NCBI GenBank assembly: GCA_003551845.1
Contig: PUNQ01000032.1
Coordinates: forward strand, 23,414-87,413
Source: Candidatus Nealsonbacteria bacterium
GTDB lineage: Bacteria > Patescibacteriota > Minisyncoccia > Minisyncoccales > PWPS01
DNA length: 64,000 bases
Direction of reading: 5' to 3'
Part shown: positions 9,562 to 48,979 of the stretch, piece after piece
How the letters are laid out: each line of letters begins with the position of its first letter
How positions within the stretch are numbered: position 1 is the first letter of the stretch
The notes under the pieces: model-generated
Seen by the model: the letters and a program-made list of their open reading frames with translations, nothing else
What the model was told of the DNA's origin: nothing
The model's database searches: none
Position numbers and translations under genes: made by a program

Positions 9562-9635
9562 TCAATAACCGGATAACTTGCTCAAAAGTTAATTTTCTGT
9601 TACAATAATCAGGACGATAATTAATTAATAAAAAT

Positions 9636-9947: not shown

Positions 9948-9973
9948 AGACTATTGCCTACAAAGCATTGATA

Positions 9974-9997
9974 AAACCGCCCCTTGGGCGGTTTTTT
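9974..9997 (+). terminator. Rho-independent terminator after rplU.
   Basis: CCGCCCC-TT-GGGCGG is followed by TTTTTT. Confidence 0.6.
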
Positions 9998-10044
9998 GAT
10001 TTAGGAATGACTAAAGAGAATGCGGTAATGACGAGTAAAGTTAG

Positions 10045-25356: not shown

Positions 25357-27043
25357 ACATATATTAAAAAACAATCAATGGGTGAAAGAAGTGGATGAGA
25401 GAACCTCCTTTCTTTTGGGAAATAAAATCGGTGATTATCTTTGGCTTTCCGATAATCCGGAGAGCAGATATCAGGGGTGGTTCGTAACACCGCCGAATCA
25501 GAATGGGGGTGAGATATACAAAGTTATCGAGGATATACGTCCGGTGGGAAGAAATAGAATTGAAACGGTGGAAAATTATTTTTCAAAAGTCAGAAGAAAA
25601 GGTGATGGATTCGAAGAGACTTTCATCGTTTCCGAAAATGAACACAAAATGAGGTATCAGCTGAAAGAGGATTCGGAAGTTGAATTGATTTTGGACATGC
25701 GACACTCTTACAGCAATGCTTATCCGGAATACATAATAGAGTGGATTGACGACAAGCTGCTGATAAAAACCGGGGGAGAAGACGATTTCTTTTTAGCGAT
25801 CAAGGGGTTCGAATCGGTTGATTTAATCAGAGAGCGGTTCGTGCGACATTATTCGATTGATAAAAAGAGAAACTCTCCTCCTTTTGAAAAAGCTGTTTTT
25901 AAAGCTTTAAGTATGAGAGGTAAAGACTTCTTTTTTTCCGCATCCGAAAACAGGGAAGAGGCTTTAAATCAATTGGACACAAAAACAGAAGCAAATTTAC
26001 CCGAAGAAGAAAAAGAGCCGGTTGATTTTGTGGCGGCAAAAAAAGGATTGTCCGATTTGTCGGTTAACGGCAGGGGGATATATGCGGGATATCCTTGGTT
26101 TTTCCAATTTTGGAAGAGAGATGAAGCAATTTCTCTGAGAGGGCTTAGAATAATCGATCCGGAAAAAGCGGAAAAATTATTTTGGTCTCTTTTGGAAGAA
26201 GACAAAAGTTGCCCTGCGGGAAAGGCGTTTGACGGAGTAGGCTGGACTTTCAAGAGAGCATTTCTTTTTCTGAATGATTTTAATCAAGAAGAAGAAAAAG
26301 CCTTGGCTGATTTTCTGCGAAAGGAAGTTGATTTTGAGAAATCCGACGAATTAACCGTTAACGGCAATAAAGAAACATGGATGGACTCAATTCCGAGAGA
26401 AGGGGCCAGGATAGAAATTCAGGCCTTAAAGCTGAATATGTATAAATTGGGTAGGCTGATCGATCCGGAAAAGCAGGATAAATATCAATCGATGGAGTCC
26501 GAATTAAAGAAAAAAGTAAGAAGCATTTTTTGGGACGGCAATATTTTGGCGGACGGTTATTTTCCGAAAAAAGGAGTGGTGGACAAAACCGTCAGGCCCA
26601 ATATCTTTTTAGCTTATTATATATATCCGGATCTTTTGAGTGAAAAAGAATGGGTGACTTGCTTCAGAAGAGCTCTTTATGAATTATGGCTCGATTGGGG
26701 TGGATTGGCAAGCATCAGCAAAGAGAGCCCTCGCTTCAACAGTCGGCATACCGGAGAGAATCCTCAAAGCTATCATCAAGGAGACAGCTGGTTTTTTGTG
26801 AATAATTTAGCCGCAATATCAATGAACAGGTTGGATGATGGAAAATTTTCATATGAGATTAAAAAAATACTTGAAGCGAGTCGAGAAAATTTAATGTGGA
26901 AAGGAGCTGTGGGCCATCATAGTGAGATAAGCTCGGCCGAAATACTGAAATCGGAAGGTGCGGTCAGTCAGGCTTGGAGCTTCGCAACCTATTTGGAAGC
27001 ACTTTATGAAATATTTAAAATAAATAATTTCAGCTGGAGTTAA
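25346..27043 (+). CDS. Amylo-alpha-1,6-glucosidase (glycogen debranching enzyme C-terminal domain, GH133-like).
   Basis: GYPWFFQFWKRDEAISLRG corresponds to the GDE catalytic region GlPWF..WGRD. It shares a glucan cluster with GT3, GH57 and GT4. Confidence 0.6.
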   Translation: MKVKHILKNNQWVKEVDERTSFLLGNKIGDYLWLSDNPESRYQGWFVTPPNQNGGEIYKVIEDIRPVGRNRIETVENYFSKVRRKGDGFEETFIVSENEHKMRYQLKEDSEVELILDMRHSYSNAYPEYIIEWIDDKLLIKTGGEDDFFLAIKGFESVDLIRERFVRHYSIDKKRNSPPFEKAVFKALSMRGKDFFFSASENREEALNQLDTKTEANLPEEEKEPVDFVAAKKGLSDLSVNGRGIYAGYPWFFQFWKRDEAISLRGLRIIDPEKAEKLFWSLLEEDKSCPAGKAFDGVGWTFKRAFLFLNDFNQEEEKALADFLRKEVDFEKSDELTVNGNKETWMDSIPREGARIEIQALKLNMYKLGRLIDPEKQDKYQSMESELKKKVRSIFWDGNILADGYFPKKGVVDKTVRPNIFLAYYIYPDLLSEKEWVTCFRRALYELWLDWGGLASISKESPRFNSRHTGENPQSYHQGDSWFFVNNLAAISMNRLDDGKFSYEIKKILEASRENLMWKGAVGHHSEISSAEILKSEGAVSQAWSFATYLEALYEIFKINNFSWS

Positions 27044-28293
27044 AGAGTTTCTACAATTCTTTTAATGCCGGACATAAGGGAAGAATCATATTCTTCTCGT
27101 TTTATTTTTTGAGCAGCGTACAAGGCGTTAAGGGGTTTGGTTTCTTTTTTCTGGTATTTTTGAGGATAATTTTCTTCCAGGCAGCCGTTCAATACGAATA
27201 TTTTTTCGGATTTTAAAAGTTCTTTTTTCTTTTTTTTGCTCGCCTCTTTGTTTTTAAACTTTTTATTCCAATAACGATCAATTCCGTCTTCATCAATCAT
27301 TACTATATAGGGCATATTGAATATTTTACAAATCTCTTCATAAAGATCGATATTGCCGATTCCTCCGCAATAAACCACTTTTATGTCCGTAGTTTTGTTA
27401 TGAAATCTGTCAATTAGACCTCTGAGCAAGATACTGTCGGAGACACCCTCTACGAGAACCACCTTGTCGGCAAAAAGCATTGCCGAATTATCATCGTTTA
27501 TCTCTTGAACCAAGCGATCTTTTGGAATCGAGCGACCCTTCTGAAAACTACAAACGGAAGTGCTGTTATTTTTATTTCTGGATACTCGCCAAACCTTATC
27601 CAAGAGTTTGGCCTGGACAAAAGTGGGGTGATGGGTGGTAAGAAAGATTTGGTTTTCCGGATTTCTATTTTGCAATATTTTTAAAAATTTTTTTATCACC
27701 GAAGGATGAAGATGTAATTCCGGTTCGTCTATAAGGATTATCTCGTAGTCGGGATTGTAAATATAAAAAAGAATCACAAAAAGCCTTTTGAAGCCGTCTC
27801 CCATTCTGTTTAGCGCTTTTTCTTTTTCGGAGCTCATTTCCGCCTCGAAGAGCTTTTCATCGATCTGAATGTTCTGAAAATATTTTTTTATGGTTTTAAC
27901 AAAATCCCGATATGCTTCATTATGCTCTCGCTTGAAGAGGTCTAAATTTTCAGCTAAGATTTTTTTTAAAGCGGGAGAGTGACTGATTCGTATTACTTTC
28001 TCTTTCATCTTTTCATATTTTTTTTTGGAAAATTGATAGTCGAGGGTCTTGCCGGAATAGTGGAGGCTACACTTTTCGGATTCATGAGTCAGGTTCAATC
28101 TGAGATTAAATTCACCCTCGCTCCTTTTTAATTTTTCATTATCGGGATTGAAAAATATTTCAATCGAATCCAGTAAATTGGTTTTTCCGGCGTTGTTGGG
28201 ACCGACCAAAATATGGAGATCGGAAAAATTATCCATTTCAATCGACTCAATAACGCTTTTATAATTTTTAATCTGAATTTTTTTTATTTTCAT
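27040..28293 (-). CDS. OLD-family ATP-dependent endonuclease (N-terminal ABC-type ATPase fused to a C-terminal Toprim), class 1 standalone.
   Basis: A Walker A (GPNNAGKTNL) and DEPELHLHP (Walker B plus the LHP signature of the AAA_15/OLD family) sit in the N-terminal half. The C-terminal Toprim reads VLVEGVSDSILL...IDEDG. The start is set at MKIKKIQIKNYKSV (ATG at 28293). Confidence 0.7.
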   Translation of the reverse strand: MKIKKIQIKNYKSVIESIEMDNFSDLHILVGPNNAGKTNLLDSIEIFFNPDNEKLKRSEGEFNLRLNLTHESEKCSLHYSGKTLDYQFSKKKYEKMKEKVIRISHSPALKKILAENLDLFKREHNEAYRDFVKTIKKYFQNIQIDEKLFEAEMSSEKEKALNRMGDGFKRLFVILFYIYNPDYEIILIDEPELHLHPSVIKKFLKILQNRNPENQIFLTTHHPTFVQAKLLDKVWRVSRNKNNSTSVCSFQKGRSIPKDRLVQEINDDNSAMLFADKVVLVEGVSDSILLRGLIDRFHNKTTDIKVVYCGGIGNIDLYEEICKIFNMPYIVMIDEDGIDRYWNKKFKNKEASKKKKKELLKSEKIFVLNGCLEENYPQKYQKKETKPLNALYAAQKIKREEYDSSLMSGIKRIVETL

Positions 28294-28300
28294 TTGATCA

Positions 28301-28351
28301 TTATAGCATTTGGAATGATTATTTGACAAAATTTTTTTTTAAACTTATAAT
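28301..28351. promoter_or_regulatory. Back-to-back divergent promoters sharing a -35 region.
   Basis: On the plus strand, TTGACA (28323-28328), a 17-nt spacer and TATAAT (28346-28351) precede the 28385 gene. On the minus strand, TTGTCA (the complement of 28324-28329), a 17-nt spacer and TATAAT (the complement of 28301-28306) sit only ~8 nt from the OLD start codon, which hints at a leaderless mRNA. Confidence 0.45.
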
Positions 28352-29030: not shown

Positions 29031-29345
29031 ATGGATAAAAAAACAGTTCTCATAGTGGTCGTATTGGTGATAGCTTTAATTGCTATTTTGGCGGTAGTTT
29101 TCAGTGAACAGGTTGAGGATCCCGAAGATATCGACCCCGATCTCAATGATATAGAAGATCCCTTCGACGACGAAGACTTGGAAGATCCCTTCGACGACGA
29201 AGACTTGGAAGATCCCTTCGACGACGAAGACTTGGAAGATCCCTTAGAGGAGGAGGAAGAAGAGGAAGAAGATGAAGAAGAAGAGGAAGAAGAAGAGGAG
29301 GAAGATGAAGAAGATGAAGAAGAAGAGGAAGAGCTTGAGTACTAA
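29031..29345 (+). CDS. Membrane-anchored, highly acidic repeat protein (EDPFDDEDL x3 plus a poly-Glu tail).
   Basis: An N-terminal TM helix, a 27-bp perfect tandem repeat and a GAA/GAG-rich tail. Confidence 0.5.
   Translation: MDKKTVLIVVVLVIALIAILAVVFSEQVEDPEDIDPDLNDIEDPFDDEDLEDPFDDEDLEDPFDDEDLEDPLEEEEEEEEDEEEEEEEEEEDEEDEEEEEELEY
29145..29237 (+). repeat. Perfect 27-bp tandem repeat (~3.4 copies) within a coding sequence.
   Basis: GAAGATCCCTTCGACGACGAAGACTTG is repeated identically three times with a partial fourth copy, and is followed by a GAA/GAG microsatellite-like tract (29238-29330). Confidence 0.85.
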
Positions 29346-31150: not shown

Positions 31151-32112
31151 TGATTTTAAAAAAAATAAAAGAAGCTTCTCTGATCGGACGTAGTGGAAGC
31201 AGATTTCCGGTTCATGACAAATGGGAATCGTTTTTAAAAAACGGAGGTAGGGGTTATCTGATTTGTAATGCCGCTGAAGGAGAGCCGGGTGCTTTTAAGG
31301 ATAAATTTTTATTGAAGAATGAAATTGATAGAGTTTTTGAGGGGATCGATGTTGTAAATAATTTCTTTCAAATCGAAGATACCTTTTTTTACGTTAAAAA
31401 AAAGTATTACAAACTGTTTAAAGCGGAACTACTTGAGAGATCCAAAAAGAGAGGGGTTAAAATCAAGCTGAAGGAGGATCGATATGTAGCGGGGGAAGAG
31501 ACGGCGGCGATAAGCTCAATTGAAGGAAAGAGAGCGGACCCGAAGGGGAAGCCGCCTTATCCGACCGGGATCGGCTTATGGGGTAAGCCGACCATAGTGC
31601 ATAATCTGGAGACTTTTTATGCTATTTCCGAGATTGCGAAGGATAATTATAACGGAGAAAGATTTTTTTGCATAACGGGAGATGTTTCGAGAGAGGGAGT
31701 TTTTAAACTCAAAGAAGAATTGAGCATAAAAGAGGTTCTTCAAAAGACCGGTAATTATCCCGATTTTGAATTTTTAGTTCAAGCCGGAGGTGGGGCGGGG
31801 GGAATTTTCATCTCGGAAATGAATATCGATCAACCTTGCAACGGGTTGGCGGTTATCGAGGTTTATAAAAAAAATGACTTTGATAAAAATAAAAAGATGA
31901 TTGAGATTTCCAATTTCTTGATGTATGGAAATTGTGACAAGTGTACTCCTTGCAGAGAGGGAATTTATAGAATTAACGAAATGCTAAAAAAAGGATTCGA
32001 CGAAAAAATATTTAACGAATTGCTTTCGGTATTGGAGAAAAGCTCTTATTGTCCTTTGGGAAAAAACGCTTCAAAAGTTTTTAAATCATTGATATCGGTT
32101 GATGAAAATTAA
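31150..32112 (+). CDS. NuoF-like NADH-binding flavoprotein / 4Fe-4S subunit (HydB/HndC-like, short form).
   Basis: An FMN/NADH site (GRSGSRFPVHDKW...CNAAEGEPGAFKDK) and a C-terminal 4Fe-4S site (CDKCTPCREG). At 320 aa it lacks the N-terminal thioredoxin-like domain. Its stop overlaps the hydA start. Confidence 0.6.
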   Translation: MILKKIKEASLIGRSGSRFPVHDKWESFLKNGGRGYLICNAAEGEPGAFKDKFLLKNEIDRVFEGIDVVNNFFQIEDTFFYVKKKYYKLFKAELLERSKKRGVKIKLKEDRYVAGEETAAISSIEGKRADPKGKPPYPTGIGLWGKPTIVHNLETFYAISEIAKDNYNGERFFCITGDVSREGVFKLKEELSIKEVLQKTGNYPDFEFLVQAGGGAGGIFISEMNIDQPCNGLAVIEVYKKNDFDKNKKMIEISNFLMYGNCDKCTPCREGIYRINEMLKKGFDEKIFNELLSVLEKSSYCPLGKNASKVFKSLISVDEN

Positions 32113-33814
32113 ATTAGACGGAAAAACAATTGAGGTCGTCGGAAAAAAGACCATTCTGGAAATCGCCAAAGAGCACGGAGTGGATATTCCTTTTTTATGC
32201 AATCATCCGGATATTTGCGTTACCGGAAGTTGTAGAATTTGTGTAGTGAGAATCAACAATGAAAACCGGTGCAGGTCGGCTTGCGATACGGTAGCGGTGG
32301 AGGGAATGGATATAATCACCTCGGATCCCGAAATCGAAAAAATAAGAAAAACAAATTTGGAACTTCTTTTTTCACAGCACAGAGAGGAATGCGAGGATTG
32401 TGTATGGAATCCGGGATGTAAACTTCTGGAGTTGGCTGAAAAGTATGAAGTCAAAATAAATAAGTACGTGGACAGAAAGGATCACTACCCCGAAATCGGA
32501 TTCGGTGGGATTGTGGAATTCGATTCCTCAAAGTGTATCGATTGCAGAAATTGTATCGAAATTTGTAAAAAACAAAATGTTTCTTTTTTGGAAATGGAAG
32601 GAAAAGGACATCTTTTCGAGGTTGTTCCGGCAAAAGATAGAGCTTGCGTTTATTGTGGCCAATGCATAATTCATTGTCCGGCGGGCTCGTTTGAGAGTGT
32701 CGGTGAATTCGAAGGTGTAGAAGACGCCTTCAAAGGTAGCGGTGATGAAAATATCGTTTTTCAAATAGCTCCCGCTGCCAGAGTGAGTATAAGTGAAGAA
32801 TTCGGACTTGATCCGGGAACCGTTTCAACAGGAAAATTAATCAGCGGATTAAAAAAAGTGGGCGCAGACAAAGTTTTTGATGTATCTTTCGGAGCTGATT
32901 TTACCACCATTGAGGAAGCTAAAGAATTCTTGGAAAAATTCAAAGATGATGATCTGCCACTTTTTACTTCTTGTTGTCCTTCTTGGGTCAGGTTCGTCGA
33001 GTTTTATTATCCACGCTTCGTAGATAATTTGACCACGGTCAGATCTCCTCACATTATTTCGGGAGCAATAATTAAAAGTTTGGCCTCGGATCCCGAAAAA
33101 ACCACGGTTGTTTCCGTCATGCCCTGTGTTTCCAAAAAATATGAAATAAGGCGCGAAGAACTTAAAGTCAACGGGTTGAATCCGGTTGATTACGTTTTAA
33201 CCGTCCGGGAGGTGGGAAGGCTTTTCAGAAATAAAGATATCGATTTTGAAAAATTACCGGATTCTTCTTTTGATGATCCTTTCGGATCGGCTTCCGGTGA
33301 TGCCGTAAGTTACGGAGTTGCGGGAGGGGTGATGGAAGCCGCTTTAAGGCAGGCTTTTTTCATGAAGACCGGAAAAAAAATAAAGGAAAAAAACCTTAAG
33401 GAGCGATCCGATTTCTCTTTTGAATTGGAAGGAAAAGAAATTAAAACTAAAAAAATAAGTGGACTTTCTCAAGCGGTGAAAGTTCTGGAAGGTCTGAAAA
33501 AATATCCGAAACTTTTTGATTATTTGGAATTCATGTCTTGTCCCGGTGGGTGTATCGGTGGTGGTGGTCAACCGATGCCGACAAATGAAGACATAAGAAA
33601 AAAGAGAAGAAAAGGACTGATCAGCACCGGCACAGATAAAAAATGGAAATCAGCTTTTGAAAACGATTCCGTGAGTGAGATTTATAAACAACTCAAATCC
33701 AAAAAAGATATTTTTCACACCTCTTTTCGAGCTGAAAGGAACCCGGAAAATATCAATAAGAAATGGCCGATAAAGAACCGGCTGAAAAGTAAAACCGATG
33801 GTCTGAAAATTTAA
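32099..33814 (+). CDS. hydA: [FeFe]-hydrogenase catalytic subunit HydA.
   Basis: An N-terminal 2Fe-2S ferredoxin domain (CNHPDICVTGSCRIC) and 4Fe-4S ferredoxin motifs precede the H-cluster signatures L1 (TSCCPSW), L2 (MPCVSKKYE) and L3 (EFMSCPGGCIGGGGQP). Confidence 0.85.
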   Translation: MMKIKLDGKTIEVVGKKTILEIAKEHGVDIPFLCNHPDICVTGSCRICVVRINNENRCRSACDTVAVEGMDIITSDPEIEKIRKTNLELLFSQHREECEDCVWNPGCKLLELAEKYEVKINKYVDRKDHYPEIGFGGIVEFDSSKCIDCRNCIEICKKQNVSFLEMEGKGHLFEVVPAKDRACVYCGQCIIHCPAGSFESVGEFEGVEDAFKGSGDENIVFQIAPAARVSISEEFGLDPGTVSTGKLISGLKKVGADKVFDVSFGADFTTIEEAKEFLEKFKDDDLPLFTSCCPSWVRFVEFYYPRFVDNLTTVRSPHIISGAIIKSLASDPEKTTVVSVMPCVSKKYEIRREELKVNGLNPVDYVLTVREVGRLFRNKDIDFEKLPDSSFDDPFGSASGDAVSYGVAGGVMEAALRQAFFMKTGKKIKEKNLKERSDFSFELEGKEIKTKKISGLSQAVKVLEGLKKYPKLFDYLEFMSCPGGCIGGGGQPMPTNEDIRKKRRKGLISTGTDKKWKSAFENDSVSEIYKQLKSKKDIFHTSFRAERNPENINKKWPIKNRLKSKTDGLKI

Positions 33815-33843: not shown

Positions 33844-33867
33844 GGGAGGGCGCTCCTCCCTTTTTTT
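33844..33867 (+). terminator. Rho-independent terminator after hydA.
   Basis: GGGAGG-GCGCT-CCTCCC is followed by TTTTTTT. Confidence 0.6.
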
Positions 33868-33896
33868 ATTAGTTTTATTTTTGCTATAATCAAGCA

Positions 33897-34223
33897 ATGG
33901 TAATGCGATTCAAAGAAATAATTAAAGAAATAGGGGAGGCCGGAAAAAGAACGGAAACGGTTAAGATTTATTATTCGGAAACCGAAACGAAAAAAGAGGG
34001 ATGGAGAGAAGTAGAGCCTTACAGTTTGTCAACGGATATCCCTCCCGACGGTGAATTTTTGGTGTACGGAAAAGATCACATAAGACCGGGGCACATCTTG
34101 AATGCTTATAATGTGGGCTCCGGCGACAAAACGGCCCACTCTTTCATTCTGGGAAAGATAAGAAAAGCTAAGAGAACGGGAAAAAGTTTTGAAGGAAGGG
34201 AAAAGTGGCCGGTTAAATTTTGA
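33897..34223 (+). CDS. Small WYL-like (Sm-fold ligand-binding) domain protein (tentative).
   Basis: The pattern VKIYYSE...GWREVEPYSL...EFLVYGKDH...HSFILGKIRKA resembles the WYL-domain consensus (..Y.s..g..R.veP..l...wyl.a.d...r.Frl.RI). It has its own TATAAT at 33883 and is first in a coupled three-gene unit. Confidence 0.35.
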   Translation: MVMRFKEIIKEIGEAGKRTETVKIYYSETETKKEGWREVEPYSLSTDIPPDGEFLVYGKDHIRPGHILNAYNVGSGDKTAHSFILGKIRKAKRTGKSFEGREKWPVKF

Positions 34224-34227
34224 AAAT

Positions 34228-34914
34228 ATGGATTATGATACAAAAAAACCGGAGGAGGTTGAAGAATTAACTGAAAAAGAAGATAAGAGCTTATTTACCA
34301 AAGTCGGAAAGGCCGTCGTTGCTTTGGTTTTGGCGCTGACTTTAATTTATTTTTCCGGTTTGAGAGAATACTTCTTTTTTGATAGAACCTCTCCGGATTT
34401 GGAGGTCGCCGAGATTGAATCGGCTTTTGAATTGGAAGTCGTGGAGATACCGATTAATGTTCTGATAATACGTGAGCCGGTCTCCGGATCTCAGAGAGAT
34501 TCGGAAGAAGTTGAGATTTTGATCCAAAATACTTCCAATTTGTTAAATCAAGCGGATTTGGAATTAAAAAAAACGAATTTTTATGAGGAGGAGCTCGAAA
34601 GGGAAGAAGTTTCGGAGATCTTAAGTGGCAATTTCCTTTTTTTGGAAAAATTAAGCAATAGGGAAATAAATTTAATTTTAGTGAGGACTTTGAGGGGCCT
34701 CAACGGAGTTGCATACCCGAGCAGAAACACTATCATAATTCCTGACTATACGGCGGGTAGAGATTACAGAACTTTTGCACATGAAGTCGGGCACATTCTG
34801 GGTCTCGGACATGTCGATGATCCGAGATACGTAATGAGTCAGGGAGAGAGAGGAGTTTTGTTTTCGGAAGAAGAAATCATAAAGATGAGACAAATTGCGG
34901 ATGAAAAATTTTAA
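34228..34914 (+). CDS. Membrane-anchored metzincin-type zinc metallopeptidase.
   Basis: HEVGHILGLGH (HExxHxxGxxH) with a downstream Met-turn (YVMS), and an N-terminal TM helix. The gene is 4 nt after the WYL-like gene and overlaps the helicase start by 14 nt. Confidence 0.6.
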   Translation: MDYDTKKPEEVEELTEKEDKSLFTKVGKAVVALVLALTLIYFSGLREYFFFDRTSPDLEVAEIESAFELEVVEIPINVLIIREPVSGSQRDSEEVEILIQNTSNLLNQADLELKKTNFYEEELEREEVSEILSGNFLFLEKLSNREINLILVRTLRGLNGVAYPSRNTIIIPDYTAGRDYRTFAHEVGHILGLGHVDDPRYVMSQGERGVLFSEEEIIKMRQIADEKF

Positions 34915-37900
34915 AAATAGCTATTCCAGACTCAATGAAGAGCAAAAAAGGGCCGTTGACAAGATTGACGGACCTTTAATGGTGGTTGCCGGGCCGGGTT
35001 CGGGGAAAACGGAGCTTTTGGCCGTCAGAGCGGCCAATATAATGAAAAAGAAGGATATTCCGGCCGGGAGCCTGCTTTGCTTAACTTTTACTGATGCAGC
35101 CGCTCTGAACATGAAGGAGAGATTAGCGGATATGATAGGGGACGAAGGCTATAGAGTTCAGGTTTTTACTTTTCACGGTTTTTGTAAAGAGATTATCAAC
35201 AACAACCCGGAATATTTTTATAAGGGAGCTGATTTTGATTTGGCTGATGAAATTGTCAAAACTGAAATTTTGGAAGAAATTTTAGCGGACCTGGATTATG
35301 ACGATCCTTTGAGTGGTCGACATCCTTCTTTGGGGTATGTTTATTTAAAACCTTTGAAAAGAATTATTCCCGAACTTAAGAAAGAAGGAATTACTCCCGT
35401 AGAGATGGAGAGAGCTCTTGAAGCCAATGAAAAAATCATAAAGAAAATAAATCCGCTTATTAGTGATGTCTTCAGTCAAAGAGTGTCCGACTCAATCAGG
35501 ATGGATATAAAAAAGCTGATAGATCAGTTAAAGGATATTGATGCTGATTTTCCGCTGGATCGATATGACCCGTTGAGCAAAGTGATCATCAAATCTTTGG
35601 AAAGAGCGCTTGATGGAGAAAAAACAAAGAAGATAACGGCATGGAAAAATAATTGGACCAAAAAGAAAAACGAAAAGAGAATTTTGAAGGATAATTATTA
35701 TCTGGATAAGCATAAGAGCTTGGCTCGGGTATATGCGAAGTATGAAAAAAAGAAATATGAAAGAGGACTTTATGATTTTTCCGATATGGTTTTGGATGTC
35801 ATAAAGGTTTTGGAGAAAAACGAAAGCCTACGTTACGATCTTCAGGAGAAATATCTATACATAATGGTGGATGAATTCCAAGACACAAGTGGAGTTCAAA
35901 TGAGGCTTATTAAAAATTTAACCGTAGACGAGCCACACGGAAAGCCGAATATTTGTGTGGTAGGCGATGACGACCAAGCCATTTACAGGTTTCAAGGAGC
36001 TGAAATTTCGAACATATTGAATTTCAAAACATCATATGAAGATGTTGAGGTGATTACTTTGAAGAAAAATTACAGGTCGGGACAAAGAATTTTGGATTCG
36101 GCTAAAAAAGTTATCACCCGGGGAGAAGAAAGACTTGAGGCGATATTGGAAGAAGTGGACAAAGATTTGATATCGATGAAAAGCGATGAAGAAGAAACGA
36201 TAGAAGCGAAAAGCTTTAAAACCAAGGAGGAGGAATATTCTCATGTTGCCCGAAAGGTAAAGTCGTTGATTGAAAAGGGAACAGATCCCCGGGAGATAGC
36301 GGTTATGGGCAGAAAGCATAAGATATTGAAAGAGATAGCTCCTTATTTTGCCGATCTTTCGATTCCGGTTTATGCGGAAAGAAAAGTAAACGTATTGGAA
36401 AATGAAGTGGTTCGACAGGTGGTTCGGATAATTCGTTTTGCGGATTATCTTTTAACCGGCGACAAAGATAAGGCGGATGAACTTTTACCTGAAATTTTAA
36501 GTTATCCTTTTTGGGGTTTGGAAAGGAAAAAGGTTTGGAAATTGGCTCGACGATCATATAAAAAAAGAAATTCTTGGTTTGAAGAGATGAAAGGTGACGA
36601 AGATCTTGAGAGGATTCAACTTTTTTTATCCGATTTAGCCCAAAAATCAAAATATAAAACTGCTCGGGAGATGATTGATTTGGTTGTAGGGAATAAAAGT
36701 GGATCTATTCGCAGCCCCCTAAAAAAATATTATTTCGGGGAAGAAAAATTGAAAAAAAATACAGCTGAATATTTTAAATTTTTATCCGCATTGAAAAGAT
36801 TTACCAACGCTCTGGAAAATTACAAAGAAGGCGAATTTTTGAAAGCGGATGATCTGTTGGATTTTTTTGACAGACATTTGGAAAACAATATACCGATAAA
36901 CGATACCAATCCTTTAATTACCGATTCGGAATCCGTTTCTTTAATGACTGCACATAGTGGAAAGGGGAGAGAGTTCGAAGCGGTTTTTATTTTGAGTTGC
37001 CAGCAAGAAATTTGGGCACGGGGAGGTAGAGGTAGAAGATTACCTTTTCCGTCCAACATACCACTTAAAATTTCGGAAACCGAAGATGATCACTTACGAC
37101 TTTTTTATGTAGCTTTGACCAGGGCAAAAAGCTTTCTTTCGATTACTTCTCATCGAAAAAAGCAGAACGGTAGAGGATATTCGTCCCTCGAATTTATCAG
37201 CCATTTCGATTCGGAGGATTCTTCCGCTGAAATAGGGTATGAAGAGATGGAATCTTCAAGAAAAGATTATTATTCTCCACCATTCGAGGTTACCGAAAGG
37301 CAGGTATTGATGCCGCTTGTTTCCGATTACATGCTCAGTCCGACCGGATTGAATAAATATCTTAATGTTGCCGATGAAGGACCGGAAGCTTTTTTGAAAG
37401 ATACCTTACTCAGATTTCCGGCTAAAAAGCATCCGGGTGCAGCCAACGGGACGGCGGTCCACCAAACGATAAGTTGGATCTACAATGAAGTTAAGTCAAA
37501 AGAAAAACCACCCGAAACAGGGGAAGTTTTAGAAATTTTTGAGAAATTTTTGAGAAAGCAGAGGCTGTCTGAAGATAATTTTGAAAAATATCTTAAAAAA
37601 AGCAAAAAAGCTTTGGAAAACTTTTATGAAGAAAGAAAGGAAAGCTTCGATTCGGATCATTTGATTGAAAAGGGGTTTAAAAATCAAGGAGTGGTAATTT
37701 CAGGTCAAAAAATCACCGGAAAGATAGATAAAATAGAGATGGACGGGTCGATTTTGGAGGTGACCGATTTTAAGACGGGTAGCCCGATTGAAAGCTGGAA
37801 TCCCTCCGGCACATATAGTAAAATAAAAGCATGGAAATATAAAAATCAATTGATATTTTATAAGCTACTTATAGAAAACTCCGCTGATTTTAAAGGAGCT

Positions 37901-38122
37901 GAAGTAAAAAAGGGATGGCTGGAATTTATTGAACCCACCGATGACGATAAACGGATAAGATTATCTCTTGAGATAAAAAAAGAAGACGTAGAGAGGCTGA
38001 AGCAATTGATAGAGATCGTCGGAAACAGAATAAAGAATCTTAATTTTTCGATTGATGACGACTATGAAAAAAAATCGGTGAAAGAAATTGAAAAGTTTGA
38101 AAAAAAATTATTAAAAACGTAA
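34901..38122 (+). CDS. UvrD/PcrA-family SF1 helicase fused to a C-terminal PD-(D/E)xK (RecB-like) nuclease domain.
   Basis: Helicase motifs I (GPGSGKTE), II (DEFQDTSG), III (VVGDDDQAIYRFQGA), V (HSGKGREFE) and VI (RLFYVALTRAK) are all present. The C-terminal GKIDKIEMDGSILEVTDFKTG...QLIFYKLL is a RecB/AddA-like nuclease motif. Confidence 0.75.
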   Translation: MKNFKNSYSRLNEEQKRAVDKIDGPLMVVAGPGSGKTELLAVRAANIMKKKDIPAGSLLCLTFTDAAALNMKERLADMIGDEGYRVQVFTFHGFCKEIINNNPEYFYKGADFDLADEIVKTEILEEILADLDYDDPLSGRHPSLGYVYLKPLKRIIPELKKEGITPVEMERALEANEKIIKKINPLISDVFSQRVSDSIRMDIKKLIDQLKDIDADFPLDRYDPLSKVIIKSLERALDGEKTKKITAWKNNWTKKKNEKRILKDNYYLDKHKSLARVYAKYEKKKYERGLYDFSDMVLDVIKVLEKNESLRYDLQEKYLYIMVDEFQDTSGVQMRLIKNLTVDEPHGKPNICVVGDDDQAIYRFQGAEISNILNFKTSYEDVEVITLKKNYRSGQRILDSAKKVITRGEERLEAILEEVDKDLISMKSDEEETIEAKSFKTKEEEYSHVARKVKSLIEKGTDPREIAVMGRKHKILKEIAPYFADLSIPVYAERKVNVLENEVVRQVVRIIRFADYLLTGDKDKADELLPEILSYPFWGLERKKVWKLARRSYKKRNSWFEEMKGDEDLERIQLFLSDLAQKSKYKTAREMIDLVVGNKSGSIRSPLKKYYFGEEKLKKNTAEYFKFLSALKRFTNALENYKEGEFLKADDLLDFFDRHLENNIPINDTNPLITDSESVSLMTAHSGKGREFEAVFILSCQQEIWARGGRGRRLPFPSNIPLKISETEDDHLRLFYVALTRAKSFLSITSHRKKQNGRGYSSLEFISHFDSEDSSAEIGYEEMESSRKDYYSPPFEVTERQVLMPLVSDYMLSPTGLNKYLNVADEGPEAFLKDTLLRFPAKKHPGAANGTAVHQTISWIYNEVKSKEKPPETGEVLEIFEKFLRKQRLSEDNFEKYLKKSKKALENFYEERKESFDSDHLIEKGFKNQGVVISGQKITGKIDKIEMDGSILEVTDFKTGSPIESWNPSGTYSKIKAWKYKNQLIFYKLLIENSADFKGAEVKKGWLEFIEPTDDDKRIRLSLEIKKEDVERLKQLIEIVGNRIKNLNFSIDDDYEKKSVKEIEKFEKKLLKT

Positions 38123-38126
38123 AAAT

Positions 38127-38597
38127 ATGAAAATAAAACCCAACTATTTCATAATTCCGCTCATTACCGTCTCAGTGGCAATTTTCGGAAATTATTTTAC
38201 TTCTCAAGGAATAAACGGATGGTATGATGAACTTGCAAAGCCGGAATGGACCCCTTCCGGATCTTTCATAGGAGCGATGTGGACTTTTCTTTACGCATTG
38301 GTTACCGCTACGGTTATATTTTTTTGGAATAAATTTAAAAAAACCGATCGGTTCCGCCTCATAATCGGTCTTTTCATAGCCAATGCCGTCTTGAATGCAA
38401 CCTGGTCGATGCTTTTTTTCGGCTTTAATTTGGTCGGAGTTTCTTTAGCGCATATCATGATTCTCAATTTAACAATCATCGCTTTGATTTTTTTATTGTG
38501 GCCGATTTCAAAAAAGCTCTCAATAGCTTTAATCCCTTATACCGGTTGGGTTTCGGTTGCCACTCTTTTGAATTACTTTATTTTGATTATGAATTAA
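38127..38597 (+). CDS. tspO: TspO/MBR family (tryptophan-rich sensory protein).
   Basis: A 5-TM, Trp-rich protein with W..ELAKPEWTP, WTFLYAL and LIPYTGWVSVATLLN motifs. Confidence 0.75.
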   Translation: MKIKPNYFIIPLITVSVAIFGNYFTSQGINGWYDELAKPEWTPSGSFIGAMWTFLYALVTATVIFFWNKFKKTDRFRLIIGLFIANAVLNATWSMLFFGFNLVGVSLAHIMILNLTIIALIFLLWPISKKLSIALIPYTGWVSVATLLNYFILIMN

Positions 38598-38631
38598 CCC
38601 GTTTTTACACCTACGAGGTGTAAAAACGGGG
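38598..38631. repeat. Palindromic element (copy 2 of 2), also a terminator-like hairpin after tspO.
   Basis: CCCGTTTTTACACC-TACGA-GGTGTAAAAACGGG is a perfect 14-bp stem. The same core occurs at 6361-6399. Confidence 0.55.
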
Positions 38632-38647
38632 ATCATTTTATTTTATT

Positions 38648-39700
38648 ATGGTGTTGCATTTGGATATGGATTACTTTTTCGCTCAAGTTGAAGAGCGGGA
38701 AAATCCTCGTTTCAAGGGTGTGCCTTTAGTGGTGGGAGCGGATCCGAAAAAAGGAAAAGGGAGGGGTGTGGTTTCTACCTGCAATTATGAGGCCAGAAAA
38801 TTCGGAATTCATTCCGGAATGGCAATATCCAAAGCGTATGAAGCCTGCCCGGAAGCGATATATTTACCGGTAAATATGGAGCTTTACTCGAGAGTTTCGG
38901 AAAATATTTTTCGAATTATCGAGAAAGTTTCCGAAAAATATGAAAAAGTATCTCTTGATGAGGCTTATATCGATCTTTCGGGTTTGGCTGAAAATTATAA
39001 ACAAGCGGAAAGAATCGGTTGTGACTTGAAAAAATTAATCTTCAAAAAAGAAAAGCTTACTTGCAGTGTCGGAATAGGGGAAAATAAAATGATTGCTAAA
39101 ATTGCCTCGGAAGAAGATAAGCCCGATGGATTAAAAGTGGTAAAAGCCGGTGACGCTCTTAAGTTTATTTCTCAAAAATCAATTAGAGAGATTCCCGGAA
39201 TAGGACCCAAAACGGAAAAGAAGTTGGAAATTATTTTGGAAAAATCGGGGTTAAAAATAAAAGATTTGCGGGCGATTTCGAAAAAGCAGTTGGTGGATGT
39301 GCTGGGAAAGAGAGGTGAAGAAATTTATAAAAATGTAAGAGGTGAAGACGATTCCGAAATAGATCTAAAAACAAAAACGAAATCAATCGGCAAAGAGATT
39401 ACTTTCGATCAAGACACTCTCGATCCCGAAAAGATAATTTCTACCTTTAAAAATCTTTCTCAAAGAGTTGCCGGAATGGCAAAAACGGAAGAAAGACCGA
39501 TAAAGACGGTGGTCGTAACTTGTAGATTCGAAAATTTTAACACTTACAGCCGACAAGTCTCCTTCAAGCCTCGAAAACCGACTAAAGGATTAATTTACAA
39601 GAAAGGAGCCAAGTTATTGCTTAAACTTTTGGCTAAAAAATTGAAGCCGGTTCGTCTTTTGGGGATCAGGGTAATTTTTGATGAATCCGATAAAGAATAA
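38648..39700 (+). CDS. dinB: DNA polymerase IV (Y-family, DinB).
   Basis: The N-terminus reads MVLHLDMDYFFAQVEER, followed by SIDEAYIDL, with the palm/fingers/little-finger architecture. Confidence 0.85.
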   Translation: MVLHLDMDYFFAQVEERENPRFKGVPLVVGADPKKGKGRGVVSTCNYEARKFGIHSGMAISKAYEACPEAIYLPVNMELYSRVSENIFRIIEKVSEKYEKVSLDEAYIDLSGLAENYKQAERIGCDLKKLIFKKEKLTCSVGIGENKMIAKIASEEDKPDGLKVVKAGDALKFISQKSIREIPGIGPKTEKKLEIILEKSGLKIKDLRAISKKQLVDVLGKRGEEIYKNVRGEDDSEIDLKTKTKSIGKEITFDQDTLDPEKIISTFKNLSQRVAGMAKTEERPIKTVVVTCRFENFNTYSRQVSFKPRKPTKGLIYKKGAKLLLKLLAKKLKPVRLLGIRVIFDESDKE

Positions 39701-45057: not shown

Positions 45058-45384
45058 ATGAAATTTAAAAGTTACCAAGAAAAAAGCCGAGAGACGGCCA
45101 TATATCCGGAAGAAGATGGATTTGCATACCTTTCTTTGGGTTTGTCGGGAGAAACGGGTGAAGTTGCCGATAAGTTTAAAAAAATAATCAGAGATAAACA
45201 AAAAAAGATAACCGACAAGGATCGGGAAGAAGTGGAGAAAGAATTGGGTGATGTGCTTTGGTATATTGCTCAAATATGTAACGAATTGAATATCTCGATG
45301 GAAGGTGTCGCAAAAAAAAATCTAAAAAAACTTTCTTCCAGAAAAAAGCGTAAAAAACTGAAAGGTGAAGGGGATAACAGATAA
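45058..45384 (+). CDS. MazG-like nucleotide pyrophosphohydrolase (small all-alpha NTP-PPase).
   Basis: ETGEVADKFKK...ELGDVLWYIAQ is the characteristic EExxE/D metal-binding helix pair. Confidence 0.6.
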   Translation: MKFKSYQEKSRETAIYPEEDGFAYLSLGLSGETGEVADKFKKIIRDKQKKITDKDREEVEKELGDVLWYIAQICNELNISMEGVAKKNLKKLSSRKKRKKLKGEGDNR

Positions 45385-46618
45385 AATGAGTTTTTTAAAA
45401 GAGATACAAAAAAATGTAGAAAATGCCGCTAATGAGATTTCCGCTCCCGATTTTTTGGTTAAAGATTTGAAAAATCCGGATAGATTTTTGGAGTTCAAAA
45501 TAAAAGTTGATAATGAAATCTTTACCGGGTACAGATCGCAACACAACAATTTATCGGGCCCTTACAAGGGAGGGGTTCGTTTTCACAAAAATGTGTCCGC
45601 TGATGAAGTGAAAGCGCTTTCGATTCTGATGACCTTGAAATGTGCTTTGGTCGGGGTTCCTTTCGGAGGCGCTAAAGGAGGAGTTAAAATCGACACCAAA
45701 AAATACGATAAGAGCAAGCTTCAATCGGTTGCCAGGCAGTATGTTCAAAAGGCTTTTCCGATTATCGGTCCCGAGGTTGACATTCCGGCACCGGATATTA
45801 ATATCGACCCCGAGCTGATCTCAATAATGGTTGACGAGTATTCCAAGATTGCCGGAAAGCCAAGCCCCGCCTCTTTTACCGGCAAAAAGCTCCGAGACGG
45901 TGGAATTGACGGAAGAGTTGAAGCGACCGGTTACGGAGGTTTTGTCATTTTGACTGAATTGATGAAATCGATCAACAAGGATCCGGAAGAAGTGGTGGTT
46001 GCCATTCAGGGGTTCGGCAATGTCGGCTATCATTTCGGTTACTTTGCAAAAAGAAGAGGATTCAAAGTAGTGGCCGCATCGGAAAGTGCCGGGGGAGTGC
46101 TGATTAAAGAGGGTATCGATATAGTTAAAACGAAAAAATGTGCGAACGAAAAAGGAACGATATTGGATTGTTTTTGTGCAAACGGAAGCTGTGGACATGA
46201 AAAAGGGGAGAGGATCAAAAATGAAGAACTGCTTACGCTCGATGTTGATGTTTTGGTTCCCGCTGCAGTCGAAGACGTAATAACGAAGAAAAATGCGAAC
46301 AAAATAAAAGCCGACCACGTTCTTTGCCTGGCCAACAATCCGGTTACTTCCGGTGCCGAAGATATCTTGACCGCAAAAGGAGTGGAGGTGATTCCGGACA
46401 TTTTAACCAATTCCGGTGGGGTCATAGCATCTTATTTCGAGTGGAAAAAAGGGTTGAAAGGAGAAGAAATTTCAAAGGAAGAAGTTTTTTCCGGAATAGA
46501 AAAATTTTTACGTCCCGCTTTTGCAAATCTTCGGGAAAAACGAAGATGTGGAAGCAGTATGAGGATGAGCGCTTATAAATTGGCAATTGAAAATTTAATG
46601 AAAAAACATAATGAATAA
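45365..46618 (+). CDS. gdhA: Glutamate dehydrogenase (Glu/Leu/Phe/Val dehydrogenase family).
   Basis: GPYKGGVRFH, a catalytic Lys region (VPFGGAKGG) and an NAD(P) Rossmann fold (GFGNVG) are present. Confidence 0.85.
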   Translation: MKGITDKMSFLKEIQKNVENAANEISAPDFLVKDLKNPDRFLEFKIKVDNEIFTGYRSQHNNLSGPYKGGVRFHKNVSADEVKALSILMTLKCALVGVPFGGAKGGVKIDTKKYDKSKLQSVARQYVQKAFPIIGPEVDIPAPDINIDPELISIMVDEYSKIAGKPSPASFTGKKLRDGGIDGRVEATGYGGFVILTELMKSINKDPEEVVVAIQGFGNVGYHFGYFAKRRGFKVVAASESAGGVLIKEGIDIVKTKKCANEKGTILDCFCANGSCGHEKGERIKNEELLTLDVDVLVPAAVEDVITKKNANKIKADHVLCLANNPVTSGAEDILTAKGVEVIPDILTNSGGVIASYFEWKKGLKGEEISKEEVFSGIEKFLRPAFANLREKRRCGSSMRMSAYKLAIENLMKKHNE

Positions 46619-47426
46619 TTTGATTTTAATCGATTTGGAAACTACGGGAACCGACCCCGACTTTCATGAAATAATTGAGATCGGAGGTATAAAGATTAAA
46701 AATATGAACCCGGTTGATGAGTTTTGCACTTTTGTCAATCCGAAAAGAAAGCTGAGCCCCGAAATAGTCGATATAACCGGAATAAGGGATGATGATTTAA
46801 AAAATGCACCTGAAAAAGAAGAGGCAATAGATAACTTCAAAAATTTTATAGGTGACACGCCTCTTCTGGCTCACAACATGGATTTTGACCGTTCCTTCAT
46901 AGAAAAAGAGGGAATAAAGGGTCCTTTTTTGGACAGTCTGGATTTATCCTGTATGCTTTTTCCGATAGAAAAAAAACATACCCAGGAGTATCTGCTTAAA
47001 AAAATTTGCGGGGTCAGCTATGAAGCCCACAGAGCACTTGAGGATGCGAAAAATCTTTTTACACTTTATAAAAGACTTTTGGATAGGGCGAAGAAAATGG
47101 ATGAAAGAGTAAAAAAAGAGATTCGTAATGCACTCAAGAGAACCGATTGGGAATTTAAGGAGATTTTCAGTTTTGATTCGAGTGAAGATGATTATTTGAC
47201 CGAAAAAGCGGAAAAAGCTAAATTTTGCCCAAAAAATTTGCCCGAAAACGCGGAAGGAATTCCCATGGCTCATCTGATGTCTTGGCTTTTTTATACCGAA
47301 ACGGGGAACTTGTCCGAGATTTCATACTGGGTAAGAAGAAAATACGAAAGCTTTTTTAAAAGAGTGAGTATAAAAAAGTGTAAGGGAAAGTGTAATTACT
47401 TTAATAACAATGGGCGATTATTCTAA
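46611..47426 (+). CDS. DnaQ-like 3'-5' exonuclease (DEDDh, epsilon-subunit-like).
   Basis: Exo I (LIDLETTG), a later HN.DFD motif and H..ALEDA (Exo III) are present. Confidence 0.7.
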   Translation: MNNLILIDLETTGTDPDFHEIIEIGGIKIKNMNPVDEFCTFVNPKRKLSPEIVDITGIRDDDLKNAPEKEEAIDNFKNFIGDTPLLAHNMDFDRSFIEKEGIKGPFLDSLDLSCMLFPIEKKHTQEYLLKKICGVSYEAHRALEDAKNLFTLYKRLLDRAKKMDERVKKEIRNALKRTDWEFKEIFSFDSSEDDYLTEKAEKAKFCPKNLPENAEGIPMAHLMSWLFYTETGNLSEISYWVRRKYESFFKRVSIKKCKGKCNYFNNNGRLF

Positions 47427-48786
47427 AAAATTCGCTACGAAATTAAAACCCTTCTTGACCGACAAGACTTTTACCGTCTCCGAATTCATAGATTTTATCA
47501 ACGGATTACTTGAGCCCCTCAAGCTCTGTAAGGTAATGATAAGGGGAGAGATAGGTGAAGACATATATGTTAACGAAAAAAACGGGTGGGTTATATTCAA
47601 TCTGATTGATCAAGAAAAATCCGAATTGGGGTGTTTCGGGTTGTCATACGTGGTTGACAGGATGGGTGTCGAGATAAGACCCGGCCTGGAAGTAAAAATT
47701 ACCGGCTATCCGCAACTGAGAAAAAAGAAGGGAAGATTCAGTTTTCAGGTTGAAAGAATAAATCCGGTAGGTGAGGGTGATTTAAAAAAGCAATTTGAAA
47801 TTTTAAAAAAAAGACTTGATGAAGAAGGATTTTTCGATCCGAAAAAGAAGAAGTCGATTCCTCAACTGATAAAAAGAGTAGGGCTCATTACTTCAAAAGG
47901 AAGTGATGCGGAAAAGGATTTTCTTACTCATCTGAAGGATTACGGATTTGAAGTTTTTAAATATTCGAGCAGGGTGGAGGGAGATGCGGCCGTTGACGGC
48001 ATCACCGAGGGGATAAAAATTCTTAATCGGAATTATTCCGATTTGGAAGCACTCGTTATTACGAGAGGAGGAGGAAGTTGGGAATCTTTACAAGCTTTTA
48101 ACAGTGAGGAGTTGGTCAAGGCCGCCTTTGCCTCCAGAATTCCGGTTATTTCCGCAATCGGTCATGAAAACGACGTTACTCTTCTTGATATGGTAGCGGA
48201 TAAAAGAGTTTCCACCCCGACGGATGCGGGTAAATTTTTATCCGAGTCATGGGAAGAAGCGGAAAGAAGGATTAACGATTCGGAAAAAAACTTATCCGCC
48301 TCAATAAAAAAAATAGTTTCTCAAATGGAAAAAAGATTTCTGGAGCAAGCTGCTTTTTTTGAAAGAAGAATCAAAAGAATATTGTCCGAGAAAGAAAAGG
48401 ATATGAATTACTTTTTAAATGCTTTAACCGATAAGATAGAACGAAAGATAGACAAATTCCATTCTTTGGAGAAAGAGTTCGAATCACAAAGTTACAAAAT
48501 TAAAATCGAAATAAAAAAGAAAAAAGAAAAGGTCATTAATTTTTATAAAGATTTACAAAAAAATAAATTACGCTGGGAGAAGACAATTGAAAAATATCTT
48601 TTAAAGGAGGACGAAAAGTTAAATCTTTCGAGTCCCGATTTAAAACTAAAACAAGGATATTCAATCACCAAACTGCAGGGAAAGATTTTAAAGTCGGTTA
48701 ATGATTTGTCTGCCGGGGAGGTTATCGAAACCACCTTGGTGGATGGAGTTGTCGAATCCCGGGTAAAAGAAAATGAGCAAAAATAA
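47410..48786 (+). CDS. xseA: Exodeoxyribonuclease VII large subunit.
   Basis: An N-terminal OB fold precedes the catalytic core (ITSKGSDAEKDF...VITRGGGS). The gene is followed by xseB. Confidence 0.8.
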   Translation: MGDYSKKFATKLKPFLTDKTFTVSEFIDFINGLLEPLKLCKVMIRGEIGEDIYVNEKNGWVIFNLIDQEKSELGCFGLSYVVDRMGVEIRPGLEVKITGYPQLRKKKGRFSFQVERINPVGEGDLKKQFEILKKRLDEEGFFDPKKKKSIPQLIKRVGLITSKGSDAEKDFLTHLKDYGFEVFKYSSRVEGDAAVDGITEGIKILNRNYSDLEALVITRGGGSWESLQAFNSEELVKAAFASRIPVISAIGHENDVTLLDMVADKRVSTPTDAGKFLSESWEEAERRINDSEKNLSASIKKIVSQMEKRFLEQAAFFERRIKRILSEKEKDMNYFLNALTDKIERKIDKFHSLEKEFESQSYKIKIEIKKKKEKVINFYKDLQKNKLRWEKTIEKYLLKEDEKLNLSSPDLKLKQGYSITKLQGKILKSVNDLSAGEVIETTLVDGVVESRVKENEQK

Positions 48787-48979
48787 CTTCGATTTCACGA
48801 AAGCGTACAAAGAAATAGAAGAAATAAACGAATGGTTTCAGAAAGAGGAAATAGACCTGGAAGAAGCTTTGGAAAAATATGAACGAGGTATGGAGCTGAT
48901 AAAAAAATGCAGGGAAAGATTGGAAAAGTCAAAAAATAAATTCAAAGAAATAAAAGATAAATATAAAAATGATGAATAA
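48773..48979 (+). CDS. xseB: Exodeoxyribonuclease VII small subunit.
   Basis: A 68-aa helical protein (FTKAYKEIEEINEWFQKEEIDLEEALEKYERGMELIKKCRERL) that overlaps the xseA stop. Confidence 0.75.
   Translation: MSKNNFDFTKAYKEIEEINEWFQKEEIDLEEALEKYERGMELIKKCRERLEKSKNKFKEIKDKYKNDE

Follow-up and report, generated by a model that had tools for sequence, protein, structure and literature searches.

A compact group of genes lies downstream of an Fe-hydrogenase-like gene (hydA) in a 64,000-nucleotide stretch of Candidatus Nealsonbacteria DNA (contig PUNQ01000032.1, positions 23,414 to 87,413; this whole stretch is referred to below as the window). Four genes, which are predicted to encode (i) a stand-alone WYL-domain protein, (ii) a membrane-anchored metzincin, (iii) a helicase-nuclease in which a UvrD/PcrA-type motor is joined to a RecB-type nuclease, and (iv) a TspO/MBR membrane protein, form a single transcription unit that is bounded by terminators and has its own promoter-like element (Table 1). 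The kinds of component are already known; what is new is that a WYL-only protein is operonic with a UvrD-RecB-nuclease fusion in candidate phyla radiation (CPR) bacteria.

Table 1. Genes and expression signals of the WYL/helicase-nuclease operon and its flanks (window coordinates)
Feature	Position	Strand	Remarks
Intrinsic terminator of the upstream Fe-hydrogenase-like gene (hydA, 32099-33814)	33844-33867	+	Hairpin 33844-33860, 7-bp stem with 5 GC pairs, tail TTTTTTTATT
Extended -10 element TGCTATAAT	33882-33890	+	TATAAT at 33885-33890; 6 nt upstream of the ATG
Predicted stand-alone WYL-domain protein, 108 aa	33897-34223	+	
Predicted membrane-anchored mini-metzincin, 228 aa	34228-34914	+	Alternative TTG start at 34189 gives 241 aa
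Predicted UvrD/PcrA-type helicase + RecB-type nuclease, 1073 aa	34901-38122	+	Alternative TTG start at 34895 gives 1075 aa
TspO/MBR membrane protein	38127-38597	+	Pfam TspO_MBR E = 2.1e-34
Strong hairpin directly 3' of the TspO gene	38598-38630	+	15-bp stem; likely operon end
DinB-type Y-family translesion polymerase	38648-39700	+	Pfam IMS E = 1.1e-51, IMS_C

An earlier sequence-only reading of this region had recognised three tightly packed open reading frames (ORFs), and the ORF coordinates agree with it: the WYL and metzincin genes are separated by 4 nt, and the metzincin and helicase-nuclease genes overlap by 14 nt. Conserved homologues exist for all three, which are therefore not chance ORFs. 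The same reading closed the unit at position 38122, which is too early, as the TspO gene, starting 4 nt past the helicase-nuclease stop codon, and the terminator behind it also belong to the unit. The hydA terminator is a hairpin followed by a T run. The TATAAT that had been put at position 33883 is part of an extended -10 element and lies slightly further downstream (Table 1). Since this element is only 6 nt away from the ATG, the mRNA is predicted to be leaderless or near-leaderless, with translation from the first ATG, so that the WYL protein would comprise 108 aa rather than the 106 aa, starting at the second ATG, that are called by databases.

In the following, contig loci from relatives are designated by L numbers. 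These relatives are almost all metagenome-assembled genomes (MAGs) of Candidatus Nealsonbacteria and other Paceibacteria; proteins of the window are 99-100% identical to those of PWHH01000026.1 (assembly GCA_003554795.1) and of soda-lake metagenome contigs. The arrangement of a terminator, TGnTAtAAT, a spacing of 5-8 nt and ATGGTnATG is also found in L004, L013-L020, L022 and L053. A 119-aa gene without a Pfam match is located between hydA and the WYL gene at L004 (9564-9923), with equivalents in L013-L016 and L018-L020; it is missing from the window, where the WYL promoter directly follows hydA.

Predicted architecture of the WYL, metzincin and helicase-nuclease proteins

As judged from its family and its structural model, the 108-aa protein consists of a free-standing WYL domain, with a predicted Sm-like SH3 beta-barrel behind a single helix. 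Its own match to Pfam WYL (PF13280) covers only residues 8-44 (17.1 bits, E = 0.0056; gathering cut-off 21.8). Nevertheless, 37 of 44 family members match the same model at E <= 0.1 (best 2.7e-5), and two distant relatives linked through profiles, P0078 (30.6 bits) and P0093 (23.6 bits), exceed the gathering cut-off over the full domain. An AlphaFold2 model, computed from a 44-sequence alignment, has one N-terminal helix and five strands (predicted local distance difference test score, pLDDT, 89.4), and together with the Pfam matches of the family it bears out the WYL/Sm-fold assignment that had been made from the letters alone. The family is small, with 46 clusters among 5.8 billion proteins, and a WYL profile search of 1.84 billion proteins returned only 32 representatives at E <= 1e-3. 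Thirteen positions are invariant within it (Y26, T29, W36, R37, D47, G65, I67, N69, S82, F83, I84, K87 and I88), and of these Y26, T29, R37, K87 and N69 would be compatible with a phosphate-binding groove. At the place of the eponymous Trp-Tyr-Leu triad, on the third strand, the protein has H66-I67-L68.

The helix and barrel account for the entire 108-aa chain, and neither a helix-turn-helix (HTH) nor a WCX domain is present, which places the protein outside the DriD/PafBC/CapW/BrxR regulator family and means that it cannot by itself be a transcription factor. It resembles these regulators, which combine a winged HTH (wHTH) with WYL and WCX domains, in its weak and consistent Pfam WYL matches and in its repair/nuclease setting; it differs from them in the absence of an HTH or WCX/dimerisation domain, in the H-I-L triad, and in a long insertion (about 20 residues) that separates strands 2 and 3. 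In DriD, PafBC and CapW, the WYL domain binds single-stranded DNA (ssDNA) as a damage signal (PMC9186387, PMC11804915, PMC11662680).

A stand-alone WYL architecture is not unprecedented, given the phage WYL-only proteins of about 90 aa and the YolD family. In BFVD the fold model is best matched by a phage WYL protein of 90 aa (TM-score 0.60 when normalised to the query, 0.71 to the target), and such phage proteins are similar to the 108-aa protein in size and single-domain architecture, with a sequence identity of only 13-17%. The YolD family, which occurs in SOS operons with Y-family polymerases, has been assigned to the WYL superfamily (PMC4012209); similar to YolD-type genes, which lie beside Y-family polymerases, the operon analyzed here has DinB as the next gene, and none of the 44 WYL family members matches Pfam YolD at E <= 0.1. 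No WYL protein was retrieved when PDB sequences were searched with a profile of the WYL alignment, and a literature search for the wording "stand-alone WYL" found nothing.

The 228-aa protein is modelled as a metzincin fold with an N-terminal membrane helix. Its motif, H185-E-V-G-H-I-L-G-L-G-H195, has H185, E186, H189, G192 and H195 invariant in 18 sequences, and M203, at the candidate Met-turn position, is also invariant within the family, while residues 196-208 have a pLDDT below 50 in the AlphaFold2 model. The core of this model has a pLDDT of about 90, and a long helix spans residues 20-50. The invariant HExxHxxGxxH, the fold model and the N-terminal helix uphold the earlier description of a membrane metzincin, while all Pfam and NCBIfam matches are sub-threshold and confined to the motif. 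Compared with adamalysin/ADAM, pappalysin (ulilysin) and archaemetzincin, the protein is tiny (catalytic domain about 170 aa), contains neither cysteines nor a pro-domain, and has a single N-terminal transmembrane anchor. Its family consists of just 16 protein clusters from one CPR lineage.

The third protein is, by sequence, a superfamily 1A (SF1A) motor of the UvrD/PcrA type with a C-terminal RecB-type nuclease domain and apparently intact catalytic motifs. Pfam detects UvrD-helicase (E = 5.5e-66), UvrD_C (E = 3.2e-30) and PDDEXK_1 (E = 1.6e-14, residues 828-1054). Helicase motifs I, II, III, V and VI, including GPGSGKT, DEFQD, GDDDQ and VALTRAK, are present, as are the nuclease motifs H / GKIDKI / DFK / QLIFY, and both sets are conserved in 19 orthologues. 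Pfam and these motifs thus support the earlier domain assignment. The nuclease domain contains no cysteine (0-4, non-conserved, in orthologues), so that it is RecB/AddA-like rather than an Fe-S domain of the Cas4/AddB-like type. PcrA is the best NCBIfam and PDB match of the motor, and among solved structures it is the nearest (PDB 1pjr, E = 4e-54, vs 1e-11 for RecB). By contrast, the models for AddA and RecB are matched far below their cut-offs (addA_alphas, 129.9 vs 860.75 bits; addA_Gpos, 117.6 vs 707.65; recB, 113.7 vs 696.05).

An AddB/RecC-like gene was found neither in the window nor adjoining the orthologue loci examined, which makes the helicase-nuclease a candidate single-chain end-resection machine. 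More than 7000 homologues were identified, and full-length orthologues of 42-46% identity occur in Harrison-, Azam-, Taylor-, Colwell- and Magasanikbacteria and in other groups; the protein is thus the product of a core, near-universal Paceibacteria gene. In architecture it corresponds to the UvrD-Cas4-like (pfam12705) fusions described by Hudaiberdiev et al. 2017 (PMC5704561), as it combines UvrD-helicase, UvrD_C and PDDEXK_1 with intact motifs; it differs from them in that its context is not type III restriction-modification or Dcm-Vsr and in that it has no four-Cys Fe-S cluster. Some UvrD-Cas4-like loci carry WYL-HTH genes, and solo-Cas4 genes are abundant in CPR genomes (PMC5704561).

The window also contains a plain UvrD/PcrA helicase of 635 aa (54101-56008), and the helicase-nuclease is therefore not the only UvrD-family motor of the genome. 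A solo four-Cys PDDEXK_1/Cas4-like nuclease, probably an Fe-S protein, is encoded at 59378-60421 and followed by a uracil-DNA glycosylase (UDG) gene at 60430-61029. At L061 a homologue of this nuclease (9387-10223, 37% identity) begins 3 nt after the helicase-nuclease orthologue, which hints that the helicase-nuclease may in some lineages be partnered by a separate Fe-S nuclease, the two forming a minimal AddAB-like pair.

Conserved and exchangeable neighbours of the WYL gene

The scan for the WYL family used one genome per species and yielded 46 loci. The sequence-only reading had left it to related genomes whether the triplet of WYL, metzincin and helicase-nuclease genes co-occurs; it does so in 10 of these 46 WYL-bearing species (L013-L020, L042 and L043; two of the loci are cut by contig ends), all of them syntenic, and not, within 7 kb of the WYL gene, in the other 36. 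The chromosomal neighbourhood of the triplet is the same throughout: TspO always comes next, mostly with DinB, and hydA is upstream in most. Confined as it is to syntenic loci of one lineage, the triplet does not qualify as a portable module, and no feature around these loci points to a defence island.

In a sister lineage, the WYL gene is followed by a gene for a PAS-PAS-HisKA-HATPase kinase and then by the helicase-nuclease gene (L060, 4265-9198; L142, 3266-8222; L143, 3271-8228). The helicases of this lineage are 46-48% identical to that of the window, and the WYL genes encode 96-101 aa (hidden Markov model E = 1e-37 to 1e-45). The kinase is soluble, the start of its gene overlaps the WYL stop codon (ATGA), and no response regulator was seen near it in the three loci. 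Because either a metzincin or a PAS histidine kinase is encoded between WYL and helicase-nuclease, the middle gene is replaceable. The link from WYL to helicase-nuclease is the part that survives, being kept while the middle gene is exchanged, and we regard the metzincin as a passenger particular to its lineage, in a slot that other genes can fill. Of the new system of sensor, protease and helicase-nuclease that had been proposed from the sequence, the connection between WYL and helicase-nuclease thus remains; the three-gene unit does not, as it is limited to the 10 species and the metzincin can be replaced.

Further downstream, TspO follows the helicase gene in L004, L013-L016, L019, L020, L042, L043 and L060 and is absent in L142 and L143; DinB, which in L060 is coupled directly to TspO, is likewise conserved as a neighbour on this side, and both are variably present among the three sister-lineage loci. 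In other lineages the helicase-nuclease mostly stands without WYL or metzincin; orthologues that lack both partners were found in L059, L061, L063-L068 and L144. A WYL match beside the helicase-nuclease of L073 (E = 9e-4) was rejected on reading its sequence.

Elsewhere, the WYL gene abuts or overlaps genes for an ATP-cone/Mrr-like restriction endonuclease, a solo PDDEXK_1/Cas4-like nuclease, an ExoIII-like nuclease or a Xer-type integrase, and overlaps of 4 nt between start and stop codons connect it with Mrr-like, Cas4-like and kinase genes. Proteins are known in which a WYL domain is fused to an SF1 helicase, an Mrr-like restriction endonuclease or Cas3 (PMC4012209), and the WYL pairings with nucleases and helicase mirror these domain fusions. 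In three cases (L045, 355-1026; L051, 2169-2855; P0064), a MazG nucleoside triphosphate pyrophosphohydrolase is fused to the WYL family, giving proteins of 223-228 aa; in the window, MazG is encoded by a gene of its own at 45058-45384. The context is different in a Crocinitomix MAG (Bacteroidota; L057, 6950-10387), where a distant WYL homologue (30% identity) is followed, after 9 nt, by a 612-aa OLD-family ATPase-TOPRIM nuclease and by DUF2130, with a 23S-rRNA-IVP four-helix-bundle gene upstream; unlike the CPR loci, this setting is defence-island-like.

To put numbers on these associations, an unbiased Pfam count compared 128 genes close to the WYL gene (positions +-1 and +-2) with 128 genes at a distance of at least 4. 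Nuclease or recombinase families account for 14 of the 128 near genes (four PDDEXK_1, four AF1548-like_C/Mrr, three Exo_endo_phos and three integrase). Among the far genes, AF1548-like_C was found three times, and the other three families are not among the 25 families listed. A BLAST-based version of the near-versus-far comparison gave an odds ratio of 4-5; we discounted it because the query nucleases had been picked from the near genes, so that the test is ascertainment-biased.

Repair genes abound in the wider neighbourhood of the operon in the window (DinB, a DnaQ-like exonuclease, the plain UvrD, the solo Cas4-like nuclease and UDG). The DnaQ/RNase_T-like exonuclease is encoded at 46611-47426, and the large (47410-48786) and small (48773-48979) subunits of exonuclease VII were assigned by synteny with L004. 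Upstream of the operon, a gene at 29031-29345 encodes a protein of 104 aa in which an N-terminal hydrophobic helix is combined with DPFDDEDLE repeats and a long poly-Glu tail; the antisense ORF that overlaps it is probably spurious. On the minus strand, at 27040-28329, lies a gene for a 429-aa OLD-family ATPase and TOPRIM nuclease (Pfam AAA_15, AAA_21, OLD-like_TOPRIM; PADLOC Old 1e-34, GajA 5e-28). Because an OLD-family gene is also found upstream in L004 and L060, it looks chromosomal and not like part of a mobile Gabija system. Gabija was rejected on two further grounds: the GajB matches are generic, with 302 bits for the plain UvrD vs 252 for the fusion, and the OLD-family gene, 5.6 kb away on the other strand at a conserved position, is not adjacent.

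Interpretation of the operon

The reading that we prefer, and in which our confidence is roughly even, is that of a vertically inherited chromosomal repair or stress operon, in which a trans-acting and probably ssDNA-binding WYL protein is an accessory to a single-chain helicase-nuclease. By analogy to AddA, RecB, AdnAB and UvrD-Cas4-like fusions, the helicase-nuclease would be the core single-chain DNA-end-processing enzyme of the lineage, and it may process DNA ends or damaged forks. The free WYL protein most likely binds ssDNA or another nucleotide ligand, as do the WYL domains of DriD, PafBC and CapW, and it could act in trans by recruiting or tuning the helicase-nuclease. The model for such a role is Thermotoga elfii Pif1 (TePif1), whose C-terminal WYL domain is an accessory module that binds ssDNA with high affinity and links unwinding to ATP hydrolysis (bioRxiv 10.1101/163188). 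Both cases combine a WYL module with an SF1 helicase or nuclease; unlike in TePif1, where the WYL domain acts in cis, it is here a separate polypeptide, its partner is an SF1A UvrD-type helicase-nuclease rather than an SF1B Pif1, and the system is known from sequence alone. In other genomes, the WYL protein may act on other nucleases. The metzincin and TspO are membrane proteins without a demonstrable link to DNA.

Several observations weigh against this reading. In 36 of the 46 species, neither a metzincin nor a helicase-nuclease is encoded within 7 kb of the WYL gene, and many of its neighbours have no connection with DNA (DUF362, SdpI, a trypsin-like peptidase, MgtE, threonyl-tRNA synthetase). 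Nucleases and recombinases are only modestly enriched near the WYL gene, and the species do not represent independent lines of descent. Since CPR genomes are compact and syntenic, adjacency is weak functional evidence. The charges flanking the transmembrane helix leave the orientation of the metzincin undecided, and its catalytic domain may face outward. With H-I-L at the triad position, the tyrosine by which DriD contacts phosphate (PMC9186387) is not kept; this mismatch carries little weight, since conservation of the triad across the WYL family is not strong (Makarova 2014, PMC4012209).

One alternative is an explanation by compaction alone, in which economical co-transcription on a streamlined, syntenic CPR chromosome would have brought together WYL, metzincin, helicase-nuclease and TspO genes that have no functional link. 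Such an explanation would account for the occurrence of the triplet only where the wider neighbourhood is conserved, for the many unrelated contexts of the WYL gene, for the two of four products that are membrane proteins with no evident role at DNA, and for an enrichment as modest as that observed. It does not readily explain why WYL remains upstream of the helicase-nuclease despite the swap of metzincin and kinase and the loss of TspO and DinB, why pairs of WYL with nucleases and helicases mirror known fusions (PMC4012209), or why WYL overlaps Mrr-like, Cas4-like and kinase genes by 4 nt; we regard it as the strongest competitor, and still rather unlikely. Further removed is the idea of a split damage-signalling module, in which the free WYL protein senses ssDNA and activates the metzincin or the PAS kinase, triggering a LexA-independent response that includes the helicase-nuclease and DinB. 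Protease/repressor modules such as CapP/CapH and IrrE/DdrO provide a precedent. The WYL gene immediately precedes, and is apparently translationally coupled to, a protease or kinase gene; ssDNA is the ligand sensed by the WYL domains of DriD, PafBC and CapW (PMC9186387, PMC11804915, PMC11662680); a DNA-damage-activated kinase/repressor module, CapK/CapS, has been described (PMC13373217); and a LexA-like gene was not found in the window. However, neither the operon nor the genes adjoining it encode a repressor, an HTH protein or a response regulator, and the metzincin is adamalysin/ulilysin-like and membrane-anchored, possibly with an extracytoplasmic catalytic domain, rather than a cytosolic enzyme of the ImmA/IrrE type, so that we consider such signalling improbable.

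A new anti-phage system composed of sensor, protease and helicase-nuclease, as the sequence-only reading had entertained, appears very improbable. WYL domains and UvrD-nuclease fusions do recur in defence loci (PMC4012209, PMC5704561), the Crocinitomix homologue, in surroundings that resemble a defence island, directly precedes an OLD-family nuclease and DUF2130, and an OLD-family gene is located 5.6 kb upstream in the window. On the other hand, PADLOC matches neither the WYL protein nor the metzincin and reports for the helicase only a generic GajB similarity, for which the plain UvrD scores higher, so that the suggested check with PADLOC yielded nothing beyond generic UvrD/GajB matches. Moreover, the distribution is not patchy or mobile but restricted to a single lineage, in which the flanks are conserved, the helicase-nuclease is near-universal among the Paceibacteria, and the neighbours are housekeeping and repair genes. 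The reading as a new defence system is thus to be corrected, as the protease is not a conserved component. We find it equally hard to credit that the helicase-nuclease is a canonical AddA or RecB subunit of AddAB or RecBCD whose partner is encoded elsewhere. It shares with AddA and RecB the architecture of an SF1A motor and a C-terminal RecB-type nuclease with H / D / D-x-K / QxxxY, there are weak matches to the AddA and RecB NCBIfam models, and the solo Fe-S PDDEXK_1 nuclease 3 nt downstream at L061 hints at a two-nuclease arrangement. Set against this, the equivalog scores remain far under their cut-offs, the motor is nearest to PcrA and UvrD, and, unlike for AddA, RecB and AdnAB, no AddB, RecC or second AdnA-like subunit was seen in the window or on the sides of the orthologue loci examined. 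The earlier description of an AddA-like enzyme with no AddB/RecC gene next to it therefore holds for the architecture and for the missing partner in the window, while an identification as canonical AddA is contradicted by the NCBIfam cut-offs.

Beyond the operon model that we prefer, a more far-reaching version is conceivable, in which WYL is a detachable ssDNA-sensing subunit that serves interchangeable partners (metzincin, PAS histidine kinase, helicase-nuclease, Cas4-like, Mrr-like and OLD nucleases, MazG) and forms with them a LexA-independent damage circuit of separate polypeptides in CPR bacteria. We think this improbable; if it were true, the WYL plug-in circuit would be a split version of the job that other bacteria leave to one wHTH-WYL-WCX protein.

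WYL domains have begun to emerge as sensors of ssDNA in non-SOS damage responses and in the regulation of phage defence, and they have been studied almost solely within HTH transcription factors. A conserved WYL-only protein of about 100 aa would offer a minimal system for the function of the WYL domain alone and for the direct tuning of DNA-processing enzymes, and the helicase-nuclease with which it shares an operon here represents a near-universal and as yet uncharacterised enzyme of the Paceibacteria.

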